DNA of 64,000 nt from IMG/VR virus record IMGVR_UViG_3300024272_002379; one strand, given 5' to 3'. Position 1 is the first letter of the stretch; the number at the start of each line of letters is the position of its first letter. The notes below the pieces were generated by a model. That model saw nothing but the letters and a program-made list of their open reading frames with translations, was not told where the DNA came from and searched no databases. Source of the stretch: a virus. Lineage: Duplodnaviria > Caudoviricetes. Positions 8,601-26,872 of this stretch are shown here, in pieces. Position numbers and translations under genes: made by a program.

Positions 8601-11600
8601 ATTGCTAATACATCTGAATTATCAGTTGTAACTGCCAGATAATAATTGTCGTATTCATAGGATGTTTCTGGTTTGGCTACTTCAAATATTTTTTCGGTTG
8701 TCTTATTATCAAAGATTTCCTGATTTTCCATATTAATAGTAGCCACAACATCATAATACTCCATATCTTTATATGTTAAACTATCAGAGTAAAAAGTAAC
8801 GTAATCACCATTTACATTAGTGATTGAGTCTTTATTGTTCCAAGGATTTTCCCACTTGTACGATACTAATGCTGATTCTGGATAGAACTCAGTAATTAAA
8901 ATGTAAATCTTAATTGTATCTTCGTGAACAGTTGTTGGAATATTAAATTGAGGAGTATCTACAACAAGGTCCTGCTTACCATGTTGATTATCTGAACGAT
9001 AACGTCCATTTACCAATCCGTAAAATACATCCATGTTGGCACCAGGAAGTTCGTCATAGTAATCTCGTGTTTTAAGCATTGGCTTAGCGGTAAACCATAA
9101 GTACTCATCAATGTATCTACCATTATCTTGTCCATCATGTTTCCAGTACATTAATGTCCACTGATATAAGTACTCCGTTAGTGGAATATGTTCAGAACTT
9201 GTCGTAGCTATTGGGTCATCACCAAATTGCTCAACGTAATTGTTTGTATTGGTAATGAAAACATTCCTTGCATAATAAACATGTAAAATAATAATATGCT
9301 TGTAATTACTATTCGGATTACATGTTGGCAAAATTTCATAGAACGGCGTCTTTGCATCTGGGTCCTCTAAGTTAAATCTGTAATTTAAAATAGGAGATTC
9401 AAAGTAGGTATCGTTATGAGCTATAAAATCTGAGTTGATGCCTACAACCATGATTTCATCTCCTGCTTTAACTAAGCCGTCATATCCTTCTAGCCATATA
9501 TCATCCCCTCTTTCAAGGACTTTAATAACAGAAGTAATATCCGCTTGTAATCCAGAATATACGTAATCTGGATTCTTTCTGTTCAGTAAAAAACCTCTGT
9601 AGTCTTCTGCTGTACTTATAAGAATCTCAGATGGGTGGTCGTATGCATTAAGCTCCGTAGTGACGAATCTTGTACCATCATAGATAATACCATCTGTATA
9701 ACCATCTATGTATACGTAATTACTTGGCGATACTAAGTAGCAATCATCTCCAAATTCAGCCGATGTACCTACTTGGTCAATATCTGTATAAACATTAACA
9801 GAACCAACTTTGCCGTCTTCCAAATTTGAATAGTCAAATGTGTTGTCGTCCATTATATCTTCATCTGCATAGTCATATGTGTCTTTTATGAATAACCCCT
9901 TGATTAAATAACGACCATCTGTTGTTCCTATGGTTTTATTATAACCCGCTGCCCATTCTGGTGTAAGTTTTGCTGCATCCAGAATTAAATCATATACACT
10001 TTTTGGTGTCATGGTTTGTGTATGCGGAGCTATAATTTGGTCTTTATCTATGATAGCTCTTTTTTCTTTTTGACTATAATATATAGGAGTAACATCTCTA
10101 TCAAAAGCAAATGGTCCAATTAGTTCCGTTTCTACCTGAACAGCTTTTACTCTATCTATATAGTAAGGTTTGTAAATAACCTCAGTAGATGGACTCATTC
10201 CACCAAATATAGGATTACTTGAATCTGAACCAGAAAACTGCTGGATATAATCAATAAATACTCTTTGCATTCCAGCCGCATCATTCCATGTAAGCTGTCC
10301 GCCAGATGTAGGTACTGTAGAATGACAAAAGCTAATGTAATCAGCTTTATAACCAACACCTGATGATGGGTCAACATAATCTCCGCCACCGTAATCAGAA
10401 ATTAAACAAGCAACTTTTTCACATACTCCCTTAAGGGCATTTGCACTAGATACTAGGTTGTTTCTTAAGTTACCTTCAACTACACCATGTCTTGCTCCAG
10501 TTACATTTGGAGAGTCATTGGTATGAATCAAACCATTTGAGTCTGTATTTGGAAATCCATCTGAAAAGAAATATGTTACAAATTTTCCATCAGCACCTAA
10601 GCTAGTAATTGCGTCTCTTGCGGCATTTAATCCAGCAGCCCAGCTTGTTGCTCCGCCATTAATTGCAATTCCATTAACTGCGACTTTTGCACTAGCCGCA
10701 TTAGTAAATCCTGTTAATCGCTTTGCTGTTTTTGCAAATTGTATAATACAATACCGTACTGTTGTACTTCCTTTGGCGGCCTCAATTGTATCAATACAAT
10801 TCATTACTGCTGCTTTCATAATAGGTCCGCCATTACCAAAAGGAAGCTGTTCCAATGAGTTTGTTTTATCAAGAACAAAAACTACATTTAATGGATTGCC
10901 ATAGAATGTTCCTGGTTGTGAGCCTGGACTCCAGTTCTCTAATAAAGTGGTAACTTCTATTGGCTCAACAGCCTCTACTGCTTTTCTCAAGAAAATAGTT
11001 GCGTATAACTTTGCATATACATTTACTGGCATTGTGCCAAACATATATTGCTGAATACTTACGTCTTCTCTAGGATAAGCATCTAAATCAAATGTTACTT
11101 CACCTTCTTGTTCTTCTACAGTCTCCTGTGCCTCTAAGCAGATTTTATAGTTGAAGCCAACTTGGTCATAATGTTTTTCTCTCTGAACTCGTTTACCTGT
11201 TAATTCAAGATAAGCTTTAAACTTCTGGTAAAAGTCCGCATCCATTTGCTTGTAAACTTTTAAATCATTGCCATCTCCAATGCCAGAATGAAATGCTTCA
11301 AGAGCTTCTTCTATAATTTCTCTTTCGGAGTCATCTGTTGTAAAGTCGTAGTTCTTTGGAACATTGTATTCTTCAAGAGATTCAGATGCATCAACTGTTT
11401 CTGTCATTACAGTAACACTTGCCGATGGTGAAGATGTCTGCTCATCTGTATAGTTAATTAATCTTCTTGTATAAGGTGTATTTGGATTTAGTCCAGTTTC
11501 TGTATATGAAGTAGCCCCAATAGGAAGCTGAGCAATAATTTTACTCTGGTCTGCTTCGCTACTGAGGTCAACAGCTTCTTCAACCAAGTAATGAGCATAT

Positions 11601-12034
11601 TGTTCATCCTCAGGCCATGACCAAATAATAGTCGTGCTGTCATATGCAACACCGACTAATTTAGGGACTTTTAATACATCATTTCTTGGATGTATGTAAC
11701 ATTTAATTGTAGGTCTAAGAGATAAAGAATTATCATTTCCATCTGATTCAAAGTATACTTCTACTCTATCAGAAAGTCCTACTATTTCAAATTCATCTAC
11801 TTCTACCGAAGTTCGTTCGATACCTAAAGCTGTACAATAAGCATCGACTTCATCCTCAAACATATCCAGAACATATACACCTTGAGACAGTATATGATAA
11901 TTATTATACAGTAGAGCATCTGTTGCTGCTGTTACTTCGGTTTCAAATATTTTATTAAATCTACTTGTACTGTTATCTATTAAATTAACAATAGTAACAA
12001 CGATGTTATACTGAATTATCATTTCCAATACCAC
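5678..12034 (-). CDS. giant baseplate/adhesin protein with FN3, vWA, TSP-C-like lectin and Ig-like domains (likely start 12022)
   Basis: FN3 (TTIIWSW...SYTETGLNPNTPY) ~11400-11680; vWA (VVFVLDKTNS...GATSW...FFSDG) ~10250-10890; DDDINGVIVAY lectin-like segment ~6130-6720; C-terminal Ig-like TDMNG motif. Confidence 0.7.
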   Translation of the reverse strand: MVLEMIIQYNIVVTIVNLIDNSTSRFNKIFETEVTAATDALLYNNYHILSQGVYVLDMFEDEVDAYCTALGIERTSVEVDEFEIVGLSDRVEVYFESDGNDNSLSLRPTIKCYIHPRNDVLKVPKLVGVAYDSTTIIWSWPEDEQYAHYLVEEAVDLSSEADQSKIIAQLPIGATSYTETGLNPNTPYTRRLINYTDEQTSSPSASVTVMTETVDASESLEEYNVPKNYDFTTDDSEREIIEEALEAFHSGIGDGNDLKVYKQMDADFYQKFKAYLELTGKRVQREKHYDQVGFNYKICLEAQETVEEQEGEVTFDLDAYPREDVSIQQYMFGTMPVNVYAKLYATIFLRKAVEAVEPIEVTTLLENWSPGSQPGTFYGNPLNVVFVLDKTNSLEQLPFGNGGPIMKAAVMNCIDTIEAAKGSTTVRYCIIQFAKTAKRLTGFTNAASAKVAVNGIAINGGATSWAAGLNAARDAITSLGADGKFVTYFFSDGFPNTDSNGLIHTNDSPNVTGARHGVVEGNLRNNLVSSANALKGVCEKVACLISDYGGGDYVDPSSGVGYKADYISFCHSTVPTSGGQLTWNDAAGMQRVFIDYIQQFSGSDSSNPIFGGMSPSTEVIYKPYYIDRVKAVQVETELIGPFAFDRDVTPIYYSQKEKRAIIDKDQIIAPHTQTMTPKSVYDLILDAAKLTPEWAAGYNKTIGTTDGRYLIKGLFIKDTYDYADEDIMDDNTFDYSNLEDGKVGSVNVYTDIDQVGTSAEFGDDCYLVSPSNYVYIDGYTDGIIYDGTRFVTTELNAYDHPSEILISTAEDYRGFLLNRKNPDYVYSGLQADITSVIKVLERGDDIWLEGYDGLVKAGDEIMVVGINSDFIAHNDTYFESPILNYRFNLEDPDAKTPFYEILPTCNPNSNYKHIIILHVYYARNVFITNTNNYVEQFGDDPIATTSSEHIPLTEYLYQWTLMYWKHDGQDNGRYIDEYLWFTAKPMLKTRDYYDELPGANMDVFYGLVNGRYRSDNQHGKQDLVVDTPQFNIPTTVHEDTIKIYILITEFYPESALVSYKWENPWNNKDSITNVNGDYVTFYSDSLTYKDMEYYDVVATINMENQEIFDNKTTEKIFEVAKPETSYEYDNYYLAVTTDNSDVLAMRYPTEIAFDENGLTSVGVAFKGVVNATSQWAPRIHNGYYYLNQHEYFAYSEFDVEADFEKLEQKYFKTLNGYITLDVHLRHAATPAESYSITKDTRSELLQDEDAFQWIDGQGVTLKPSIDGVYFREYLTSYYYSPVILFPNILTEAGAFNVTYSFEDGSNYLPMEIRSYITEEGKWSEWTPFENNTVPTVPLSNGYQVRINCQASVLNNDLTTEDYLCCYLDWKDEMDAVNTTNIVTVTDHMIAGPDEGNGIFISKILDFGCETELILDLFESYYSHHIQLYIAYASNADALLLENIKWNNITLAGDIPAHARYFRYKIVIPFGEKLYWLHKRIKTLETHEILPYISGVSMTGVYAPEDVVTNFINTEAFEIPRDGEYHTVFKRVIDVIGADVLSRGYTENEIEYVKVQCTTENTELLYDSGLDMQYPTRHLTTPIKVKSNTAYDIVTKNTPYIRVSPNNVDTEEINITRGTPQQYCPITVEDEYGHTYRQLYDVDQKMYVTDVYIMETKEKYIELKRNDFELESINVYINDNLVTPDCYRIVNHLLIFNDFLAAGDRVEMVYRIPYSFYADIDRVNNTTKLILYMDKDLCQLPDYDSYMEPYSGMSIEQMYMSGLRFSCHVSSDSMHYSPTEEESWAYDTSLGTFSTTINSTNFNGFISNEDPVEAYTHEVTIKSGNSDDDINGVIVAYAFDEYDSPHTLSYIVSRGGFNPDGYTYALVYDWYRPTQKVLCGFTSSIDPSFDGTTHGWSEFPNGIRIRIEKTNNILQCKASMWNRPGVWNNASVLDFDLNSDVDTQIFSGFVYYGYCNQSQANSYYTGIDFQAFIKREIVKKFKVYFETDTRNNKFIASDLSLNPVYRTDYKGFIYLTDEHNEPYSIKIHCNPLRLKAGGYDKVDVSIEVLDIQSNPVISKEVAVDCEYGILNCENYVTDMNGVVHLVYESAYLACIDKLTARVLKDDNTALEQSISIINE

Positions 12035-12037
12035 CTT

Positions 12038-12340
12038 TTAATATATTGTATAGTTGCCGTCCTTTGTGATGTAATATCCGTTATCAAGTAAGTAAAAGCT
12101 TCCAAAAATTATACTCTTAACCTCTTTGACAATTTCATATGCAACACCAATTGGCATTTCACCAGCTACATATTTTTGTTCAATGCTTGCTTTCTTTCTG
12201 AATACAGTAAAGCTTTTAGCAATGATACTTTTTGATGTTTTCTTTTCTGGTTCGATTGTTTCAGGTTCTGCCTTAACATCTTCTGCTTCCAATGGTACTA
12301 CTTTTTCTTCTACTTCTTTTGACTTACTTTTTCTAGCCAT
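12038..12340 (-). CDS. hypothetical protein
   Basis: 100-aa ORF with GAGGAGG RBS, tightly packed between neighbours. Confidence 0.65.
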   Translation of the reverse strand: MARKSKSKEVEEKVVPLEAEDVKAEPETIEPEKKTSKSIIAKSFTVFRKKASIEQKYVAGEMPIGVAYEIVKEVKSIIFGSFYLLDNGYYITKDGNYTIY

Positions 12341-12342
12341 TG

Positions 12343-13704
12343 TTATTCCTCCTCATTGTAAATTGTTCTGATATTCGCTTTTAGCGTAGTTTCATTGATA
12401 CATAATACTTCCCATTCCATATCATATTTATCAGATAATCCGCTTAGTTTGGGAACTATTACTCTGTAAAGTCCGTACTTTTGAAGGTTATTTACTTTAG
12501 ATAAAAATTGACTCCATGACATAAGTAATGTATTTTCAAGTCGTAAATAATCTTCAAACTCTTTTGTCATGTCAATTTCCTCTCCAGTTTCTTTATCAAT
12601 ATAGGTTACTGTAAATGATAAATCTATATAATCTTTCAGGATAACACCTGGAACAGCAAACTCTTGTGTAGCTGTTTCTTGTCCTTCAGAATAGATTACC
12701 GTATACCAGTTCCAGCCTATCTCTGTTACGAAAATAGAAGATATTTGACATTTCTCATGACCAACTCTTATTCGTTTGCCGTCAGGATATATTACATATA
12801 TAACGACATCTTCTTCGTCATAAGATTTTCCAACTTCTATTTTAGCACCTTCATACCAAACATTCAATCTCAAAGAACTAACATTAGTATATGGAACAGT
12901 GATTTGTGTAATGAGATTTTGATATTGAATTTTAAACACACCATTGTTGGTATCTGTAATAACAGGAAAATCTAAGAATTCCCATTCTGTAGGAGAAAGT
13001 CTTATGATTTCTCTTGTATCTGTGGCAACTAAGAATACGCCAGTAACTAGTACTTCATCAGAGTATATTCTGCTCCCGATAGGGAGTATTTCTCCTGTAT
13101 ATTCAGCATCTAGTGCTAATAATTTTGGCAATCCGACAATGATAAAATCAACAGCGAAAACTGTATCTAGTAATAAATCCTCGTACAATAAAGTTTTTGT
13201 ATTATCACCTATTTTATACACCAAATAGTCATCATTTTTAATTTCACAATCATTTGGATTAATAATTTTTATAGAACCGTCATTCAATCTGGCTTTTATA
13301 AGTAAATCATTTTTACTGAAAGTATCTGATACAAATAAATCAGAACCAGTGTATCCTACAGTTATATCTATGATAATAGGCTCAAATGTAATGTGATGAT
13401 TCACTGCTATCTCTTGTGTAATTATACCTTTTGATGCGTCATTAATATCACGACTATGACTTCCATATAAAGTAATGACGCAAGGTGCTGTAATTGTCAA
13501 AGCAATTATTCCACTTGCGTCACTATATACTTCCGTCATATTTGTAATATCAGGTTCGCTGCCGTCATAGGTCATTGCATATTGAATAGATAAGTGATTA
13601 CCTATACATTGATTGCCATTATCATCATATCCTTTAAATATAATAGGAAAAGCTCCTAATTGCTTTGCCCATTCATTAACTCCTGGGGTAATTGATAATG
13701 CCAT
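12343..13704 (-). CDS. bacterial Ig-like repeat structural protein
   Basis: Three repeats (YTGSDL / YTGEIL / YEGAKI ... V.V.YPDG) typical of Ig-like domains; TAATG coupling to the upstream gene. Confidence 0.6.
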   Translation of the reverse strand: MALSITPGVNEWAKQLGAFPIIFKGYDDNGNQCIGNHLSIQYAMTYDGSEPDITNMTEVYSDASGIIALTITAPCVITLYGSHSRDINDASKGIITQEIAVNHHITFEPIIIDITVGYTGSDLFVSDTFSKNDLLIKARLNDGSIKIINPNDCEIKNDDYLVYKIGDNTKTLLYEDLLLDTVFAVDFIIVGLPKLLALDAEYTGEILPIGSRIYSDEVLVTGVFLVATDTREIIRLSPTEWEFLDFPVITDTNNGVFKIQYQNLITQITVPYTNVSSLRLNVWYEGAKIEVGKSYDEEDVVIYVIYPDGKRIRVGHEKCQISSIFVTEIGWNWYTVIYSEGQETATQEFAVPGVILKDYIDLSFTVTYIDKETGEEIDMTKEFEDYLRLENTLLMSWSQFLSKVNNLQKYGLYRVIVPKLSGLSDKYDMEWEVLCINETTLKANIRTIYNEEE

Positions 13705-14826: not shown

Positions 14827-15225
14827 CTATCCGTTCCAACGAGACTTTGTTTCTCTTACATCAATATGAGTAAAAGTTGCATAAGCACCTATACCGCCTG
14901 TATTTACTAACAAAGTTTCTGCGAACTTTACAACTTCTTTTGGGGAAATTCCACTTACCACTATATCTGCCGCTGTACCGTATAAATGTTGTGATTGTGC
15001 AGCTCCACCTACTTTTTTGTTGTGACTAGGTGTACGATATGCTGAATTAATTATAACAGGTTTGCCAAAGTGTGAACGAATTTTTTGTAAGATTTCTACT
15101 AATTCTGGAGCGATAAAGATTACATCACTACCATCCTGACAAGCAAACTCTCTTACTTTAAAGTTTGTAGATACTTGTTTGTTTCCGTCTACTTTTTTTG
15201 AATAGGCATATATTACTGGTTTCAT
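14827..15225 (-). CDS. Zn-dependent peptidase M15A (endolysin-like)
   Basis: NFKVREFAC, INSAYRTPSHN, SQHLYGTAADI and FTHIDVR motifs; start moved to ATG 15225, which follows an AGGAGG RBS. Confidence 0.9.
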   Translation of the reverse strand: MKPVIYAYSKKVDGNKQVSTNFKVREFACQDGSDVIFIAPELVEILQKIRSHFGKPVIINSAYRTPSHNKKVGGAAQSQHLYGTAADIVVSGISPKEVVKFAETLLVNTGGIGAYATFTHIDVRETKSRWNG

Positions 15226-15235
15226 AAAATACCTC

Positions 15236-15793
15236 CTAACTTTGTTTTTGAAGATTTCCATGCCATTTTCTTAGCAAATATATTCTTCTTAAAATAAGGT
15301 TTTTTCTTTCTTCTGAAAAGTAATTTGATGTATTGATTATTTCAGTAAAAACTGGAATATATTCGTCAACTGTTAAATTAAGGTATCTTAACAGTTGACC
15401 TATATATTCAATATTATTAACTTTAAATTTTACCAAGGCTGCGGCACATTCATGAGCAAGCAAATCTTCTGGAGCTAAAAAATAGAATTCGTCTTTTTTA
15501 ATAGCTCTATCTTTGTACCCTTGAGGGCCAAAGCACTTATCAACAATATCTATAGAACTAGTTTTTGTTATATTTTCTGCATCAATATCAGTAAAAATAT
15601 CAACATCATGAATATGTTTTAGTATGAAGTAATCCATGAAACTAGCACAACTTGAACCGCCTATAATAAAATCTTTTGTAGATAAATTATTAGCAATTTG
15701 GAATTCTTTTACTTTTCGCAATATAATTCTATTATTTCGATTATGTAGTTCACTATATTTATCGTAGTTTTGATACGAAAATGATATTGCCAT
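15236..15793 (-). CDS. putative Pol-beta-fold nucleotidyltransferase
   Basis: hIGGS motif followed by HDVDIF (GS...DxD signature). Confidence 0.55.
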   Translation of the reverse strand: MAISFSYQNYDKYSELHNRNNRIILRKVKEFQIANNLSTKDFIIGGSSCASFMDYFILKHIHDVDIFTDIDAENITKTSSIDIVDKCFGPQGYKDRAIKKDEFYFLAPEDLLAHECAAALVKFKVNNIEYIGQLLRYLNLTVDEYIPVFTEIINTSNYFSEERKNLILRRIYLLRKWHGNLQKQS

Positions 15794-19645: not shown

Positions 19646-20209
19646 TTATTGTTCTGCATCATTAGATATCAGACAATGTTTTTGTATCAATTTATGATTT
19701 TTAATAGCATTCAATACAGTAGATTTTATTGTTTCAGATATATGAACTAATGGTCCTAATACTTGAAATTCAAAAGAAGCATTACCCGATTCTTGTGTTA
19801 GCATAATTCTTTTTATTTTAATAGGTTGTTCAGAAGACCATCCTATTTTGTTTTTCTTCCAGCTTAAGCCATTTGAATAATCTGAAATATAGTTTAAAGT
19901 TACATTAGGAAACTCATTTAGATTGGAGCTTAATTCTAATGAGTCATCTTCTGAATAATAAACAGTTGTTGTAGTATAAAGATTCCCCCAATGTTGAGTA
20001 GTATAGTCTATTATTTCGTTTATTAAATGTGGAGAGTTAAACACTATTAGAGCTCTTGTTCCACCTAACCAATTATATCCCTTACCGTCTCTAAGAGCGT
20101 TATTAATAAGTTCATTATCCACTAAACTTTCGGGTTTGCATCCATCTTTGTAACTATCTGCGGTTATACTATATAAATCTGTTAAACAAAAATTAACTTT
20201 TTCATTCAT
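19646..20209 (-). CDS. small putative receptor-binding protein with C-terminal AIKNHKL tag
   Basis: Discoidin-like pattern (LVDN...VYYSED...FEFQVLG); shared tag. Confidence 0.6.
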   Translation of the reverse strand: MNEKVNFCLTDLYSITADSYKDGCKPESLVDNELINNALRDGKGYNWLGGTRALIVFNSPHLINEIIDYTTQHWGNLYTTTTVYYSEDDSLELSSNLNEFPNVTLNYISDYSNGLSWKKNKIGWSSEQPIKIKRIMLTQESGNASFEFQVLGPLVHISETIKSTVLNAIKNHKLIQKHCLISNDAEQ

Positions 20210-20252
20210 TATTAGTCACCTCATAAAAATAATGATATATATTTTTATATTG

Positions 20253-21056
20253 CTACAGCTTTTGAGTTAATTTATGAGAAAGTATTACGTTTTCCAGTAA
20301 TGTTACTCTTGTGATAAGACCTACACCACCAGGAACTGGCGTAATAAAGGAGCATAAATCTTTTACATTATCGTAATCAACATCTCCGCACATTTTACCG
20401 TCTTCATCTTGATTAATGCCAACGTCTACAATAATAGCCCCTTCTTTAATCATGTCTTTTGTAATGAACTTTGGTTTTCCTACTGCTGATATAATTATAT
20501 CAGCTTTTCTCAAAATATTCTCTAAATTTTGTGTATAACTATTACAACATGTAACTGTTGCGTTTGTTTTCTCTATTATGAGATTAACCATTGGCTGCCC
20601 GACGATTTTACTTCGTCCTAGTACAACAACATTTTTACCAGTCCAATATGTAACTTCACTAAGAAGATTATAAACACCTAATGGAGTACAAGGTGTAAAT
20701 TTAGATGTAACTTTAAAACCGTCTACATCTTTGTCGTCATCAATTGCTGCTTGTACTTTTTCTACAGAAATATGCTTTGGTAATGGAAGTTGTACGATAA
20801 CCCCATCACATTTTTTGTTAGCATTTTCGATAATCTTTATTAATGTATCTTCTTCAATATCTTCTTCTACTTTAAATAAAGTTGGTTTAATTCCTACTTC
20901 TTCACAATCTTTTATTTTACCAGCGACGTATTTATTAGAAGCAAAATTATCACCAACTTGTATAATGCATAAACTAGGATTTAGCTTATGATTCTGTATA
21001 GTTTTCATAATAGCATGTTTTCTTTGTGCTACAAATTCTTTACAATAATTACTCAA
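20253..21056 (-). CDS. folD: bifunctional methylenetetrahydrofolate dehydrogenase/cyclohydrolase
   Basis: YVAGK (YxxxK), IVQLPLP, KDVDGF, PCTPLG, GRSKIVG, DVGIN and ITPVPGGVG motifs; TTG start after GGAGG. Confidence 0.95.
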   Translation of the reverse strand: MSNYCKEFVAQRKHAIMKTIQNHKLNPSLCIIQVGDNFASNKYVAGKIKDCEEVGIKPTLFKVEEDIEEDTLIKIIENANKKCDGVIVQLPLPKHISVEKVQAAIDDDKDVDGFKVTSKFTPCTPLGVYNLLSEVTYWTGKNVVVLGRSKIVGQPMVNLIIEKTNATVTCCNSYTQNLENILRKADIIISAVGKPKFITKDMIKEGAIIVDVGINQDEDGKMCGDVDYDNVKDLCSFITPVPGGVGLITRVTLLENVILSHKLTQKL

Positions 21057-21059
21057 TTT

Positions 21060-21578
21060 CTATTCCTCCGTATGTGGTACTACGTATTTCATTAATTCAT
21101 GATTTAGTATTGCGTCTTTAACTGCATCCTTTAATGAAGTATTTCCATACATTTCTAATTCTACAACTGTCCATGGATAATCACCATTGATTCCACTAAC
21201 ATTTTCTCTTAACTGTAATCCCCAGTATTCATGTGCTCCATTATCTTCCAATTGTATTTCTGTAAAACCACATGGTAAATTAGTTACGTATTTTGCATCA
21301 ATCCAATTTATACCGTCATCTGAATAAATTACATATACATTTGTTCCGTATTCTGCTATTTCGTTACCACTGCCTTGGGTTAAATACATTTTTAAAATTC
21401 TTTCTGGTTTTGAAAAATGATAAGCAATATAAGGTTTGTTGCTACCTGCAAAACTATGAGATGCATAACCTTTTGATGTGGAACCATCAAAAGCATTGTT
21501 TGGTCCAAATTTTTCTATATTGCCAGATTCATGAAAACTGTTTGTAATTGCCTCTCCATTTATACAAAGATTTTTCAT
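21060..21578 (-). CDS. discoidin/F5-8 (CBM32-like) protein with C-terminal AILNHEL tag
   Basis: NAFDG...YIAYHF...YSDDGINW...VVELEMYG. Confidence 0.75.
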   Translation of the reverse strand: MKNLCINGEAITNSFHESGNIEKFGPNNAFDGSTSKGYASHSFAGSNKPYIAYHFSKPERILKMYLTQGSGNEIAEYGTNVYVIYSDDGINWIDAKYVTNLPCGFTEIQLEDNGAHEYWGLQLRENVSGINGDYPWTVVELEMYGNTSLKDAVKDAILNHELMKYVVPHTEE

Positions 21579-21588
21579 ATTATCCCCT

Positions 21589-22161
21589 CTATTCTAATGC
21601 TGCTGTAGCAGCTTCATATACTGTATTATATATTCTTGATTTTGTCGATGTTGATTCTTCTTCTATGGTTTCAAAAGGCATGACATGTTTTTGTATCAAT
21701 TCATGATTAAGAATAGCATCTTTAACGTTTTCCTTTATCATCTTACTTTCTGTTTGTACTTCTTCTAAATACCATTCAATATCTCCTCTGTACTTTCCTG
21801 TATGAGAAAAAGTATAAGTACCAGGTTCTAAACCTTCTAGCCATAATTCATAGTCACCACTATTGTTAGGGTTTTTTAAAGTATGTTGTGTTTTATATGT
21901 ATTTGGCGTTATATTTAACGAATTATTATGCCCGTTATTTGGTAGAGTTTTTCTCCATATATTGCATTTTTTGTTAAATGTAATAGTACAGTAATCACCA
22001 TTATAGTTCCAGTCAAAGCTATGTCTCCAGTTTGAAGGGGCTTCAATACCATCAAATAGATAAATAGGATTACAGCTATTATGACTTCTATATGTTACAA
22101 TCTCATAGTCTGTCATCTCTTTACCAAGTTTTTCTACATTAGGTTTAGATGTTCCTGCCAT
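21589..22161 (-). CDS. putative receptor-binding protein, paralog of 24241..25077
   Basis: MAGTSKPN start, LFDG, EWYLE, AILNHEL tag, YEAATAALE end. Confidence 0.65.
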   Translation of the reverse strand: MAGTSKPNVEKLGKEMTDYEIVTYRSHNSCNPIYLFDGIEAPSNWRHSFDWNYNGDYCTITFNKKCNIWRKTLPNNGHNNSLNITPNTYKTQHTLKNPNNSGDYELWLEGLEPGTYTFSHTGKYRGDIEWYLEEVQTESKMIKENVKDAILNHELIQKHVMPFETIEEESTSTKSRIYNTVYEAATAALE

Positions 22162-22922
22162 ATCTGTTCCTCCTCATATGATACTATATATTTAAACATT
22201 TCATGGTTCTTAATAGCATTTAAAATAGATGCTTTAATTGTTTCAGAAGGACCTGTTATATTTAATAACAACTTATAATAATCAGGATAATCTTTTTTTA
22301 AATTATCATAATATTGATAACCTAATCCTTCGGCATTCATATTCATTGAATTATTAGCACCATCAATAGTAATACTACCAAAATTAACATTATAAGTACA
22401 ATAATTCAAATGTTGAGTACCCAATTCTAAACCTCTTCCATTAAAAGTACAGTTAGTATAATATAATTTAGTATCTGGATAGTGATTATTAGCACCATAA
22501 ACAAAAATACTACCAGGGAAATAACCGTTTGTCTGGAATAAACAATTATAAAATCGTTTATAGTAAATTTGATTATTTGCATCTAAATATAATAATGCTC
22601 TTATGTCTCCATCAAAACTTGTATGAGGTTGTAGTATTAAATTTATAAACATTATATTATTTGTACTTGTTGAACATGCTTCGCATTTTTGAGCACTAAT
22701 AGTAACTAATGTTTGTCCAATAATAGTAACGTCATATCCTATATTCATTGGTTCTGCTAAACTATATAAAAGATATGGAGTTTCACTTTCTTTTAATATA
22801 ATAACACCAGCTTCTTTGCTTGCTTTTAAAAGATTAAGTGCTGTTGCAATATCAGCTACTGGGGTATCTTTTGTCCCAGTGCTTGAATTGTTTCCGTTTA
22901 TATTATCAACATAATAGTTCAT
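22134..22922 (-). CDS. pectin-lyase-like beta-helix protein with AIKNHEM tag
   Basis: YYVDNINGNNSSTGTKDTP (DUF1565-like cap); Asn/Cys ladders (FYNCLF, YTNCTF). Confidence 0.6.
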   Translation of the reverse strand: MNYYVDNINGNNSSTGTKDTPVADIATALNLLKASKEAGVIILKESETPYLLYSLAEPMNIGYDVTIIGQTLVTISAQKCEACSTSTNNIMFINLILQPHTSFDGDIRALLYLDANNQIYYKRFYNCLFQTNGYFPGSIFVYGANNHYPDTKLYYTNCTFNGRGLELGTQHLNYCTYNVNFGSITIDGANNSMNMNAEGLGYQYYDNLKKDYPDYYKLLLNITGPSETIKASILNAIKNHEMFKYIVSYEEEQIWQEHLNLM

Positions 22923-22940
22923 ATTTTGACCCCTCCTTTT

Positions 22941-24227
22941 TTATGGCTCTAAATACAAGTAATACCAGTAAGTTGTATTACCTTCAGGATTAAGTAATAT
23001 ATAATATTTGTCATTGTATTCTGAAACATCTATTTCATCTTCATAGTCGCCAGATGGAGTAAAGGATTCTAATAAAATTTCAGTACCATCTTTATCAACT
23101 AAGAATATTTTACCAGGCCATTTATTCCTTTCCGTTTGAGAAAAATGGAATTTTAAAGTATTATAAAGCGATAAATCTATCATTTCTTTTGTCTGATAAT
23201 AAGCACAACAACGTTCAAGGCTTGTATAGTAATTATAGACATAATCTTTATGAACGGATACACCTGCATTCTCTTGACTGATATCATCCATTGTTGTTTC
23301 AAACACTTTTGTTTTATCGCCTAATGGAATTATATAATATGGTTCGATTCCAAAATCTATTACCGAAACATATTTATTAAATAATTCATTTGTCTGAAAA
23401 ACATTTAGAACTCCTTTTTTAAGTTTTTCTGATGGGTCAATTCCAATAAATTTATTATCTATGTAGACCTTACCTGAAGATATTTTAGAAGTATAAGACA
23501 ATAAATTATTTTTAGAAGTATCCATGGATTCGTCAATAATACAGTCTTGTTCTACTGCATACCCACCACTTGAAAATTCATTATGAACGATTTGTTTATT
23601 ACAAACACAATTGCTTAGTGTTATTCTTCCTGAATAATTAACTCCACGCATTTCGCCATAAACATGGAAAACACAATTTTCAATAGTTGTCTCAACATAA
23701 TTATTATCATATATTAACGCATGTTTAGGTCTTGAGAAAGGATTATAAAATTCAAATATACAGTTTTTGCAAACCCAACCATATCTTGGTTCTACAAAAA
23801 ATATATCACTTAAAGTTCCGCCCCATGAAGTATCAACGACTTCTTTCATGACTATTATTTTAAAATGTACATTAATCAATTTACCATTCATATGGTAGAA
23901 GTCATATCCTCTTCCTCCGTCTCCAGTGTGTGATATGTTAATTTTAGTATTGCGAATATCACTACAAATCAATATATCTTTAGCACATGTAAAAATAGGA
24001 ATTGTATAACTAGCACTTTCTCGGTATACATGTTCATTTGTATAATTGTACTCGCCTTTCAAAAAATAAATAGCATCACCATCAGTAGCCTTATTGTATG
24101 CTGCAAGATAAGAAAAAAATGGGTTATCAATTGAGCCATCGCCAGTTGCGTCGTTTCCATCTGGCGAGCAGTAATATATGTTATTTACTGTGTAATTCGT
24201 ATTGTTGATAGTTATTGTATGTGCCAT
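22941..24227 (-). CDS. beta-helix protein with an internal tag and an extra C-terminal beta domain
   Basis: YYCSPDGNDATGDGSIDNPF...GDAIYFLKGEY; CKNCIF/IENCVF/LSNCV ladders; internal SEKLKKGVLNVFQTNEL. Confidence 0.65.
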   Translation of the reverse strand: MAHTITINNTNYTVNNIYYCSPDGNDATGDGSIDNPFFSYLAAYNKATDGDAIYFLKGEYNYTNEHVYRESASYTIPIFTCAKDILICSDIRNTKINISHTGDGGRGYDFYHMNGKLINVHFKIIVMKEVVDTSWGGTLSDIFFVEPRYGWVCKNCIFEFYNPFSRPKHALIYDNNYVETTIENCVFHVYGEMRGVNYSGRITLSNCVCNKQIVHNEFSSGGYAVEQDCIIDESMDTSKNNLLSYTSKISSGKVYIDNKFIGIDPSEKLKKGVLNVFQTNELFNKYVSVIDFGIEPYYIIPLGDKTKVFETTMDDISQENAGVSVHKDYVYNYYTSLERCCAYYQTKEMIDLSLYNTLKFHFSQTERNKWPGKIFLVDKDGTEILLESFTPSGDYEDEIDVSEYNDKYYILLNPEGNTTYWYYLYLEP

Positions 24228-24240
24228 ATTTTCACTCCTC

Positions 24241-25077
24241 CTATTCTAAAGCTGTTGTAGCAGCTTCGTATATTGATTTATATACCATATTACTTATTGG
24301 AGCAGGAGTATCAGCATTATCCGTTTCTTCATCTCCGCCGATTATATATTTATCTACAACTTCTTTAAGTAAATTGTAGACTTCTTGTTTGATTTTAACT
24401 GCTACAATGTTGCCATCAGTATCTGTAATGGGTTCAAAATCTACAAACATTGGGGTTAGTGTGATATTTTCTGTTACCATATCTCCATTTTTGAACAATG
24501 TTCCATCAGGTTTTTGATACCCAATACAAACTTTATTAACCTGACATGCTGGAAAATCATTAACACTTATTGGAGTATTTTCAGAGTAACCCTTAGTGTA
24601 AATTTCATTATTATTTTGGTCACAACATGTTATTCGATAAGAACCATCTGTTCTTTCTAAAAACCATTCAGTATCCAGTCTAAGAGCACTTGTTGCTTTA
24701 AATTTATATATTCCAGCTTCTTTAATGGTCATACATTTTTGCCATTCATATTTATTTGCCAAATTATATTGCTCAATTTGACTTGTAATGTCTGTTTCTG
24801 TTCCATCATTTTCTATTTTATATATTTGAAATTTACCAGTATAACCACTATAACTTTTAGAACTATGTCTCCATATTATACATGGCGTGTCAAATTTAAT
24901 AGTTACATATTTAGTTGAGTCACCCCAATAACATACATCTGACGTATTCCAGTTACTTGCATGTATAACTCCATCAAATAATCCTTTTGCAGAGCCTGTA
25001 ACAGAACTTGATATTATTTGACAAGTAGTTTCCATTCCCGTTATTAAAGAATCGTTTGGTTTAGCTGTTCCTGCCAT
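24241..25077 (-). CDS. putative receptor-binding protein, paralog of 21589..22161, with an InlB B-repeat-like domain
   Basis: MAGTAKPN, LFDG, EWFLE, then YRITCCD...GYQ...VTENITLTPMF; ends YEAATTALE. Confidence 0.65.
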   Translation of the reverse strand: MAGTAKPNDSLITGMETTCQIISSSVTGSAKGLFDGVIHASNWNTSDVCYWGDSTKYVTIKFDTPCIIWRHSSKSYSGYTGKFQIYKIENDGTETDITSQIEQYNLANKYEWQKCMTIKEAGIYKFKATSALRLDTEWFLERTDGSYRITCCDQNNNEIYTKGYSENTPISVNDFPACQVNKVCIGYQKPDGTLFKNGDMVTENITLTPMFVDFEPITDTDGNIVAVKIKQEVYNLLKEVVDKYIIGGDEETDNADTPAPISNMVYKSIYEAATTALE

Positions 25078-25087
25078 AAAATACCTC

Positions 25088-25906
25088 CTATAAAATTACC
25101 ACATTATCTATGTCTCTTGATACGATAAATCTTTCAAACCATCTGCATGATTGATTTACATACAAAGCTTTTTCTCCGTTAATCTTAAATGAGATATTTG
25201 ATTCTTGTAAGATATTTTCAGATACATTCATGATTACTTGGGTAATTTTATCTATGATAATGTCTTCGCCTATACTTAAGTTAGATAAGTAATCAGTTAG
25301 AGCAAGCTGTACATCATATCTGATTTCTTGCTTTTCGATATCTGATAATGTGTCCTTAAGGAATAATTTCTGCTTAATTGAAACATATGTAAGAGTAGGA
25401 CTAACAACATTGTATCTAATACCATATCCATGTACATTTAAAAGCTTTGCTTTTACGTTTTCCAGAATACCTTCTGAGGTTACATCTTTATCGGATAATA
25501 CGATAACAGTAAAAGAACCAGCTCCCATAGAATAAGGTTTAAGAATAACATCATTAACGCCTTCAACAGTTAACGCTGTTAATCGAATTGCTGTTTCATT
25601 TGATGTAGCAAGAGTAAGGCACTGATTTACAATTCTGTATCTAAAATTATCATCCGTTTCATTTGTTAATCTAAAGCATTGTACCAGTACACCAATAGCA
25701 TCTAATGCTCCGCCATCTGCTGTAGTTACGAATGCCCTAATGTGATTAACAGTTAATGTATTGTACAAATTAGCAATGTTCTTATTTACAATATTCATAA
25801 ACAATTTTGCTATTGCACCTGGAGATGTAGAAAAACCAACGGCTGCTAAGTCGCTGGTAGATTCTACACTTAATTCTTCAAATGTTTTTGTATTTAATAC
25901 TATCAT
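25088..25906 (-). CDS. baseplate J-like (gp47/gp6) protein, compact form
   Basis: TADGGALDAIG...ETDDNFRYRI, VEGVNDV, GAGSFTV, YLSNLSIGEDI motifs. Confidence 0.85.
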   Translation of the reverse strand: MIVLNTKTFEELSVESTSDLAAVGFSTSPGAIAKLFMNIVNKNIANLYNTLTVNHIRAFVTTADGGALDAIGVLVQCFRLTNETDDNFRYRIVNQCLTLATSNETAIRLTALTVEGVNDVILKPYSMGAGSFTVIVLSDKDVTSEGILENVKAKLLNVHGYGIRYNVVSPTLTYVSIKQKLFLKDTLSDIEKQEIRYDVQLALTDYLSNLSIGEDIIIDKITQVIMNVSENILQESNISFKINGEKALYVNQSCRWFERFIVSRDIDNVVIL

Positions 25907-26430
25907 TTTTCCTCACTCCCTGTAATGATATGTTGAACCAATTCATGGTTTAAAATAGCATCTGTAATTAATGTTTGTATGGTTTTCGATATTTGCATTG
26001 TTGATGCATCAGTATTTACGTATACCATTTTATACGTACCCTGTATAGATGCGTCAAGATTTAAAAAAGCAATTTGTTTATATGTGCCATCATATGTATG
26101 TGACATATAAACAGTGACTTGCTCTCTTCCATAAGATGTGTTTTCCCATGTTCTTATACCTATTTTTGTAAGTTTAGTAATGTCTGTAATGTCAAGTTCA
26201 GCTATAAAATAAGTTGTTTCTGGGCAGCCCGTCCACCATCTATTGGTAATGGTATTATTTGTAGAAAATATTTGACTCGTTGTTGGTGTATCTCTTACAA
26301 AACCATCATAAACGATACTAAATTTAGTATAAGGTATAATTGCTCCATCTTGGTCAAATACATTTATTCGACCAGCTCCTAAGCATCCATCTATCCTTTT
26401 GTATAAAAATTTTAAAAATACACTTTTCAT
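25903..26430 (-). CDS. discoidin-like protein with C-terminal AILNHEL tag
   Basis: Start moved to ATG 26430 after GGAGG; WW...FIAELD...VYMSHTYDG; tag DAILNHELVQHII. Confidence 0.6.
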   Translation of the reverse strand: MKSVFLKFLYKRIDGCLGAGRINVFDQDGAIIPYTKFSIVYDGFVRDTPTTSQIFSTNNTITNRWWTGCPETTYFIAELDITDITKLTKIGIRTWENTSYGREQVTVYMSHTYDGTYKQIAFLNLDASIQGTYKMVYVNTDASTMQISKTIQTLITDAILNHELVQHIITGSEEK

Positions 26431-26434
26431 ATTC

Positions 26435-26872
26435 TTACCTCCTTGGCTCCCATCCGAACTTAATAAATACACCTTTTACCAAGTCAAGTTCTGCCGTAAT
26501 TTCGTGAGAATACGTATCTTCTGTTTCGGATTGGTATATCTTTAAAAATATACTGTAGGTAATATTAGTATTGTTTTTGATTTCTGTCTTAATAAATATA
26601 TCGTTATCTGTCCATAAATCATCTACGGTTAGTACATCAATGATTTTCAATTTGCCATATTCAGCTATCTCTTCTGTACATGGTTTGCCAATAATCTCTT
26701 CTAAGTCTGCACCAATTTCATCAACAAACCATGTTTTAGATATAGATTTTATACGGTTATACGCTAATTGAATACGCAAATCATTACCTTTATTAGTCTG
26801 TATGTCATGCGTATTGCTGTCAACTATGATTTCTCCCTCTGGAGTAAATCCAAAATCGAATCCTTCTGCCAT
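26435..26872 (-). CDS. baseplate wedge protein (gp25/W-like)
   Basis: DFGFTPEGEI...WFVDEIGADLEEIIG; lies between spike and J; start moved to ATG 26872 after GGAG. Confidence 0.7.
   Translation of the reverse strand: MAEGFDFGFTPEGEIIVDSNTHDIQTNKGNDLRIQLAYNRIKSISKTWFVDEIGADLEEIIGKPCTEEIAEYGKLKIIDVLTVDDLWTDNDIFIKTEIKNNTNITYSIFLKIYQSETEDTYSHEITAELDLVKGVFIKFGWEPRR

Follow-up and report, generated by a model that had tools for sequence, protein, structure and literature searches.

The stretch of DNA analysed here (the window) comprises 64,000 nucleotides from IMG/VR virus record IMGVR_UViG_3300024272_002379 (Duplodnaviria; Caudoviricetes). Its source is an uncultivated gut phage with a genome of about 210 kb. 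The minus strand carries every gene of the window from about 0.4 to 64 kb and the GC content is about 33%. Between positions 19,646 and 26,430, on both sides of a gene for a baseplate J-like protein, lie small genes whose products share a motif of 22 residues, usually followed by a short acidic tail. We call this motif the tag. The genes concerned, with the J gene and a metabolic gene lying among them, are listed below; bit scores refer to a profile of the tag built from other contigs.

19646-20209, minus strand: tagged protein of 187 amino acids (aa); tag at 19673-19738, followed by an 8-residue tail (profile, 44 bits)
20253-21056, minus strand: FolD (methylene-tetrahydrofolate dehydrogenase/cyclohydrolase), inside the array but not a tag carrier (Pfam)
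21060-21578, minus strand: F5/8 type C (discoidin) protein of 172 aa; tag at 21078-21143, followed by a 5-residue acidic tail (Pfam PF00754)
21589-22161, minus strand: discoidin/CBM32-fold protein of 190 aa; tag at 21682-21747, then an acidic linker and a second C-terminal helix motif at 21592-21633 (AlphaFold2 (AF2) model)
22134-22922, minus strand: probable right-handed beta-helix protein of 262 aa; tag at 22182-22247, followed by a 15-residue tail (sub-threshold matches)
22941-24227, minus strand: probable beta-helix protein of 428 aa; internal degenerate tag at 23367-23432, then an extra domain of 141 residues (profile, 22 bits)
24241-25077, minus strand: paralog, of 278 aa, of the 190-aa protein; extra domain, degenerate short variant of the tag at 24325-24396, second motif at 24244-24285 (blastp)
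25088-25906, minus strand: baseplate J-like wedge protein of 272 aa, the landmark flanked by tagged genes (Pfam Baseplate_J, PF04865; phrog_6)
25903-26430, minus strand: tagged protein of 175 aa, between a W-like gene and J; tag at 25924-25989, followed by a 6-residue acidic tail (profile, 18 bits)

Six copies of the motif had been proposed in an earlier note made from the sequence alone. All six are present; each lies on the minus strand, no more than a few bases from where that note had placed it. When profiles were built with each copy left out in turn, five of the six were recovered with 17-33 bits, the best non-member reaching 10-12 bits; the internal copy of the 428-aa protein was not recovered in this way. 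The profile scan that the note had called for was carried out with a non-circular profile of 39 tags, all taken from other contigs. The six copies are the top six of 1118 six-frame open reading frames (ORFs), with 44, 42, 28, 26, 22 and 18 bits (next best 8.7), and there is no seventh copy within the 64-kb window. The note had also remarked that the codons of the copies vary synonymously, and this is so. At 133 positions with identical residues, 72 codons are identical compared with 66.6 expected from codon usage (standard deviation 5.4). Since codon identity is no higher than codon usage predicts, selection acts on the peptide. A DNA-level element or a recent gene conversion behind the motif is not supported.

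When 1.84 billion representative proteins were searched exhaustively with a profile (E <= 0.001), 41 matched, three of them falsely (repeat proteins), leaving 38 further carriers. Wherever a protein has just one full-length match, this match lies at or near the C-terminus, in proteins that are mostly of 150-240 residues (a few are short fragments). Position and tail statistics were obtained from a set of 45 carriers. The near-fixed positions are Ser1 (41 of 45), Ile4 (39), Lys5 (41), Val/Ile8 (44), Ile12 (43), Asn14 (41), Asn/His15 (45), Leu17 (43), Ile/Phe18 (42) and Gln19 (36). The distance from the end of the motif to the C-terminus is 5-8 residues in 39 carriers, and all 39 of these tails have at least two acidic residues (Asp/Glu) among their last four. 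The usual pattern of the tail is a hydrophobic residue, Pro, Tyr and then a Glu-rich end, and tag and tail together measure 27-31 residues. The 22-residue motif described initially is real, but the equally conserved short acidic tail that follows it had been missed.

The six carriers with a different ending are four proteins in which a linker and a second C-terminal helix follow the tag, together with the 262-aa and 428-aa proteins of the window. The internal tag of the 428-aa protein is the most degenerate copy, and such decay would be consistent with the need for a free C-terminus. The shared module is C-terminal in 44 of the 45 carriers, and their N-termini differ between clusters of bodies. 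In the AF2 model of the 190-aa protein, the tag forms two helices (residues 138-151 and 154-160) with a break exactly at Asn14-His15. Hydrophobic residues of the tag lie on more than one face and its hydrophobic moment is low (0.18-0.43). The complete unit is predicted to be a helix-kink-helix of 22 residues with an acidic, free C-terminal end.

The tag is carried by a wide variety of bodies. Once stripped of the tag, the bodies of the 45 carriers fall into 20 single-linkage clusters (blastp, E < 1e-3). Pfam attributes seven of them to F5/8 type C, two to Big_2, two to Laminin_G_3 and one to CE2_N. Throughout the clade, the tag is found on at least four domain types: discoidin/CBM32, immunoglobulin (Ig)-like Big_2, concanavalin A-like LamG and probable beta-helix. 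The match to the LamG profile runs through its last position and stops about 7 residues before the tag; that to the Big_2 profile reaches position 73 of 79 and leaves about 13 residues before the tag. In one carrier (P0049), a low-complexity linker of about 40 residues, rich in Gly, Glu, Asn and Thr, separates body from tag. The same types of body also occur without the tag, both in discoidin proteins of other phages and in a LamG protein of a related locus (L034). The latter has N-terminal and C-terminal stretches like those of tagged protein P0028, a different end, and no tag in any frame. The motif is thus a portable module at the peptide level, placed after complete globular domains of different families, as had been proposed. 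The description of the bodies as unrelated was overstated for the window, although four or more domain types carry the tag across the clade: in the window, three of the six have discoidin-like evidence (the 172-aa protein by Pfam, the 190-aa protein by its model and the 175-aa protein as an atlas lead only).

The body of the 172-aa protein matches PF00754 with 36.2 bits (cut-off 28.2). In tblastn comparisons of this body with discoidin proteins of Clostridium and Bordetella phages, the alignments end at residue 146, which is the start of the tag. AF2 with the single sequence gave no usable model of this protein (predicted local distance difference test, pLDDT, 35). For the 190-aa protein, an alignment of 11 sequences gave a model with a pLDDT of 78.9 and a predicted template modelling score of 0.69. 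The model consists of a beta-sandwich to about residue 135, the tag (beginning at 139), a low-confidence segment (163-170) and a helix (171-189) corresponding to the second motif. It matches many CBM32/discoidin structures with Z scores of 8-9.3 over residues 5-137, the matches ending at about 135. A search of the ESM Atlas with this protein gave only weak beta-sandwich neighbours (TM score < 0.5). The 'LFDG-type' body, which the earlier note had treated as a separate type, is itself a discoidin/CBM32 fold according to the model.

The third discoidin-like candidate is the small tagged protein encoded upstream of J. Its ORF is listed as 189 aa from a GTG at 26472, which overlaps the upstream gene. 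Upstream of the ATG at 26430 there is a strong Shine-Dalgarno sequence, and database homologs begin at this ATG (the ESM Atlas record starts at residue 15 of the listed ORF), and the real product is therefore probably of 175 aa. Its nearest ESM Atlas clusters are F5/8 type C (score 0.94, which is a lead only), and the body is probably discoidin-like. The 187-aa protein has an ortholog in locus L009 (P0007) with a body 80% and a tag 68% identical.

The bodies of the 262-aa and 428-aa proteins are probably beta-helices, to judge from periodic Asn-Cys-x-Phe-type repeats, sub-threshold matches to DUF1565 (0.0019 for protein P0012 of L034, 0.23 for the 262-aa protein), a weak match to phrog_16653 (3e-4, N-cap) and a precomputed Pel9A-like label, also weak. 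A profile of the 262-aa family gave no match to PDB sequences. Three of four orthologs of the 262-aa protein (P0009-P0011 are among the orthologs) stop 5-7 residues past the tag, and in the fourth the second motif is present in addition. The stop codon of the window copy has probably been lost or moved recently, by nine or ten residues downstream, and the longer tail may impair its tag. The resulting C-terminal extension (22134-22181, minus strand) overlaps the start of the next gene. L034 encodes a 379-aa relative of the 428-aa protein in which the shared N-terminus is combined with a Big_2 domain and a tag at the end. The body of the 278-aa protein is clearly paralogous to that of the 190-aa protein (blastp, 9e-14). 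The tag profile misses the degenerate, shorter variant of the tag in this protein. The same variant occurs in L031 (11322-12083) and in L034 (2146-3135, P0012); it is without the Asn-Asn/His kink and has an acidic end. The domain of about 80 residues which precedes it is, judged by eye, presumably similar to the Listeria-Bacteroides repeat.

The J protein matches PF04865 with 55.1 bits (gathering score 21.1) and phrog_6, baseplate wedge subunit, at 4e-20, and it is kept in all related loci. In the window, the order of transcription is a 1898-aa tail lysin, a 236-aa protein, a 155-aa protein in the W/gp25 position (a phrog_25235 match), the small tagged gene (25903-26430) and J. These are followed by 11 genes, encoding the 278-, 428-, 262-, 190- and 172-aa proteins, FolD, the 187-aa protein, a 626-aa tail-collar and discoidin fibre, a 649-aa tail fibre, a 185-aa protein and an M15 peptidase. 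Downstream of these lie a conserved 370-aa protein (phrog_21059, E 1e-110) and then proteins of 453 and 100 aa and two giants of 2118 and 1192 aa. Intergenic gaps are of 3 to 43 nucleotides where the genes do not overlap, and this tight spacing suggests that the cassette block is one late structural operon. A scan for promoters and terminators between 12 and 28 kb was uninformative, with counts at or below the shuffled expectation.

Scans based on J provided 5 viral and 20 metagenomic loci, and look-ups of carriers added more. The module lysin, 236 aa, W-like, J and 370 aa is found in all ten of the eleven carrier contexts in which neighbours can be identified (the eleventh contig is too short to place). 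In these contexts the tagged genes are confined to the genes flanking J, as the earlier note had it for the window. They occupy slots between the 236-aa and W-like genes (L031), between the W-like gene and J (the window, L031, L036 and L037) and between J and the 370-aa gene, and their number varies from 0 to 6 per locus. Some tag-bearing loci (L009 and L035) have no fibre genes in the cassette, so that any partner of the tag should be a core protein. In a tree of J, tags occur in both deep branches (about 55-60% J identity), and tag-less loci (L002, L003, L005 and L010, together with a clade of eight members taken to be from rumen samples) are scattered among the tag-bearing ones. The system is therefore old in the group and often lost or regained. 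The window and L032 have J proteins that are 96% identical and almost no cassette genes in common, a turnover of the kind that is typical of host-range determinants.

The sequence of the tag itself is not slow to change. For orthologs with body identities of 59-80%, tag identity is only 32-68%; for distant paralogs, with body identities of 32-45%, it ranges from 27% to 64%. The drift between orthologs implies that only a pattern of about nine positions is held. One adjacent pair of paralogs, in L036, has a tag identity of 86% compared with 44% for the bodies. Tags are not significantly more alike within a genome than between genomes (10.6 compared with 10.2 identities of 22; p=0.21), and concerted evolution within a genome was accordingly rejected.

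The tag belongs to no named family. A Pfam scan of eight tag segments at E <= 10 returned no family, a search of PDB sequences gave no match below E 0.39, and the motif strings are absent from papers of the searchable literature. A word-based search with the motif profile gave matches only in its own lineage; proteins of this phage are present on about 20 contigs. The impression in the earlier note that the motif was undescribed was thus correct over these sources. A degenerate DNA pattern for the eight-residue core, run over IMG/VR, gave three single matches, all in unrelated proteins and roughly as many as chance would give. The core also occurs in the first helix of an unrelated small phage protein in L006 (4392-4414, minus strand), a case we judge to be chance; this protein starts Met-Pro-Asn-Trp-Cys, which we take to be a DUF1281-like N-terminus.

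We favour, at about an even chance, the reading that the tag is a portable C-terminal attachment or assembly tag which mounts swappable host-recognition heads on the tail tip. A single conserved site, on a core protein of the baseplate or on a peripheral protein of the tail, would bind the small hydrophobic hairpin together with the acidic end. Tagged heads of any kind, made late in infection, would thereby be mounted on the tail tip, and glycan recognition of the host surface would change by cassette swapping while the core stayed the same. A tail-tip site that reads the tag is suggested by the strict C-terminal distance and acidic end, by the portability across folds and the lectin-type bodies, and by the confinement to the J-flanking cassette, its rapid turnover and the decay of the internal copy. 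A number of observations weigh on the other side. Phage receptor-binding proteins (RBPs) are normally anchored by their N-termini. The tag changes faster than the body between orthologs, and the lack of a significant within-genome likeness means that there is no signal of co-evolution with a genome-specific partner. Close relatives with the same core proteins (the tag-less loci named above, including the rumen clade) have no tagged genes near J, so that any receptor site would have to persist without ligands. The presence of the tagged proteins in the virion, a binding partner and a role in adsorption are all inferred. A more far-reaching version, which is possible but which we rather doubt, is a phage equivalent of the cohesin-dockerin system. 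One baseplate site would accept any tagged protein, giving up to six or more lectin heads per virion, defined by the genome and swappable, and the second C-terminal helix (AAT-ALE-type) would provide a further level of docking. Such a system would amount to a new and engineerable principle of host-range modularity in phages.

The main rival to docking on the tail tip is self-association. The tag would form a mini helical bundle, dimeric or trimeric and comparable with a collectin neck, which would make weak lectins multivalent, any attachment to the virion being by other means. We think this unlikely, and both roles could coexist. The two short helices broken at Asn14-Asn/His15 in the AF2 model would suit such a module, as would the low hydrophobic moment with hydrophobic residues on several faces, a pattern seen in small bundles. 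Structurally, the 190-aa body is matched best by muskelin, whose discoidin domain has LisH dimerisation helices after it, and lectin domains usually need avidity. However, self-association leaves the fixed C-terminal distance, the acidic end and the confinement to the baseplate module unexplained, and the tag has neither a LisH nor any other Pfam match at the threshold given above. Rather less probable still is a recognition signal, read by a chaperone during assembly, by a maturation protease (for which the tag would be a cleaved helix resembling an intramolecular chaperone) or in the course of release or export, in which case the lectins may leave the virion. Recognition tags are typically C-terminal, and Ser1 and Lys5, which are both near-invariant, are loosely like the Ser-Lys dyad at the cleavage site of S74 intramolecular chaperone domains. 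Yet Ser1 is equally well explained as a helix N-cap, the tag is far shorter than the Peptidase S74 chaperone domain (about 100-150 residues) and did not match it in the Pfam scan, and no signal peptides or membrane segments are visible in the translations of the tagged bodies.

The two remaining explanations dispense with a dedicated peptide module. If the carriers were simply diverged paralogs of one ancestor, with the C-terminal helix as their slowest-evolving part, there would be no special tag. The discoidin-like evidence for three bodies of the window (for one of them an atlas lead only) and the clear paralogy of the 190-aa and 278-aa proteins point in this direction. We nevertheless regard it as very improbable: Big_2, LamG and probable beta-helix bodies carry the tag as well; in P0049 it comes after a long low-complexity linker; homologous bodies occur without it; and between orthologs it is less conserved than the body, the opposite of what a slow-evolving core would show. 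Least credible of all is conservation as DNA, the motif serving as a site of microhomology or recombination for cassette shuffling. The genes for the 187-aa and 190-aa proteins do have an exact run of 17 nucleotides in common, but, in comparisons that included no direct-repeat search, most in-register exact runs are of 4-11 nucleotides, and codon identity is at the codon-usage expectation reported above.

The proposed mounting by a shared module has counterparts in several known systems. In branched RBP systems (TSP1-4 of Ackermannviridae phage CBA120, the RBP sets of Klebsiella jumbo phages and the SP6/K1-5 adaptor), one short shared module is likewise combined with differing binding parts, and the genes lie in a fast-turnover part of the tail module, as they do here. 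The anchors of those systems are N-terminal domains of large trimeric spikes or fibres. In contrast to such N-terminally anchored RBPs, the module described here is a C-terminal peptide of about 30 residues on small, single-domain, lectin-type proteins. The comparison with dockerins (PF00404) made in the earlier note is useful as an idea of how the tag might work. Dockerins are also short, portable and usually C-terminal, are found on many unrelated carbohydrate-active or carbohydrate-binding bodies and bind a common scaffold, as the tag would. Membership of the family can be dismissed: the tag measures about 30 residues compared with about 70, and has no duplicated calcium-loop segment, no Asp/Asn-rich loop and no sequence match, including in Pfam at E <= 10.

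Muskelin (PDB 4OYU and 8TTQ) resembles the 190-aa model (Z 9.3) in having a discoidin domain directly followed by two short helices. The fit covers only the discoidin part (model residues 11-135), however, the tag lacks the LisH (PF08513) signature, and muskelin is a eukaryotic cytoplasmic protein. T4 Hoc and the CBMs on Dit, Tal and other tail proteins of phages of lactic acid bacteria are likewise accessory Ig-like, discoidin or CBM domains, displayed on the virion to bind glycans weakly. In Hoc, it is the C-terminal part that attaches to the capsid. These decorations are fused or have a binding domain of their own, whereas the tagged proteins are separate small products which share a peptide. 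Shared N-terminal anchors, dockerins and fused Ig-like or CBM decorations are known; free small lectins with a common peptide tag are not.

The closest cultured relative of the core module is that of Bacillus phage 0305phi8-36, whose gp162 is 35% identical to the 370-aa protein. Its record describes gp162 as a low-copy virion protein (a single peptide, with reduced confidence), and its neighbours are virion proteins by mass spectrometry. The orf162-164 region of this phage is called 'hyperplastic', with domain substitution, by Hardies et al. (PMC2147016). The products of the equivalent slot (gp158-161) were considered as counterparts and rejected: they have no similarity to the tagged proteins and no tag.

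In tailed phages, host range usually changes when fibres or spikes, anchored by their N-termini, exchange their C-terminal parts. If docking of the tag on the tail tip is correct, the use of a short C-terminal peptide to mount separate small lectins with many different folds on a single baseplate would be another, simpler way. It would explain how glycan recognition is retuned by cassette turnover in a clade of large uncultivated gut and rumen phages. It would also provide a compact tag for displaying foreign binding domains on the virion. The tag profile (about 45 members) serves as a sequence signature for finding accessory adhesins in metagenomes.

The second C-terminal helix, of the type Tyr-x-x-x-Tyr/His-x-Ala-Ala-Thr-x-Ala-Leu-Glu, is also portable and follows the tag after an acidic, Ser- and Thr-containing linker of about 10 residues. 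It is found twice on the minus strand of the window (21592-21633 and 24244-24285) and in carriers P0010, P0050 and P0036. The two bodies concerned in the window are of discoidin type, and in L032 one is a probable beta-helix and the other a different discoidin type. This helix is therefore modular in its own right. A further C-terminal arrangement is seen in the conserved 453-aa protein (12343-13704, minus strand) and its shorter homologs, which end in a Glu-Trp strand, a short helix and an acidic tail. Homologs occur in L001, L002, L005, L017, L020, L031, L032 and L034, and in several of them the last five residues equal those of some tags. This ending might be an ancestral or a parallel docking end. 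Homology of the 190-aa family with this family, suspected from their similar ends, was rejected (hhalign probability 2.6%).

Two observations concern the composition of the cassettes. In L009, between J and the first tagged gene (9877-10000), there is a short remnant ORF which begins like the 190/278-aa family (Met-Ala-Gly-Gly...) and which suggests a deleted cassette gene. In tag-less L002, the slot between the W-like gene and J contains a gene for a 180-aa protein (1222-1764, the same as L012 9308-9850) which ends in a different amphipathic helix and lacks an acidic tail; this protein may fill the same position in an unrelated way.

An N-terminal helix of FolD had been considered as a possible tag. 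It reaches only 7.3 bits with the tag profile and aligns with the ordinary first helix of FolD, a resemblance that we take to be chance. The gene itself, which is intact (Pfam THF_DHG_CYH_C, 3e-58, and THF_DHG_CYH, 2e-28), is a metabolic gene embedded in a baseplate adhesin cassette, and folD is also found inside the L009 array (11883-12674). The M15 peptidase of the window (14827-15261, minus strand; endolysin-type, Pfam 1.5e-28) lies just before the 370-aa core gene, and it does so likewise in L031.

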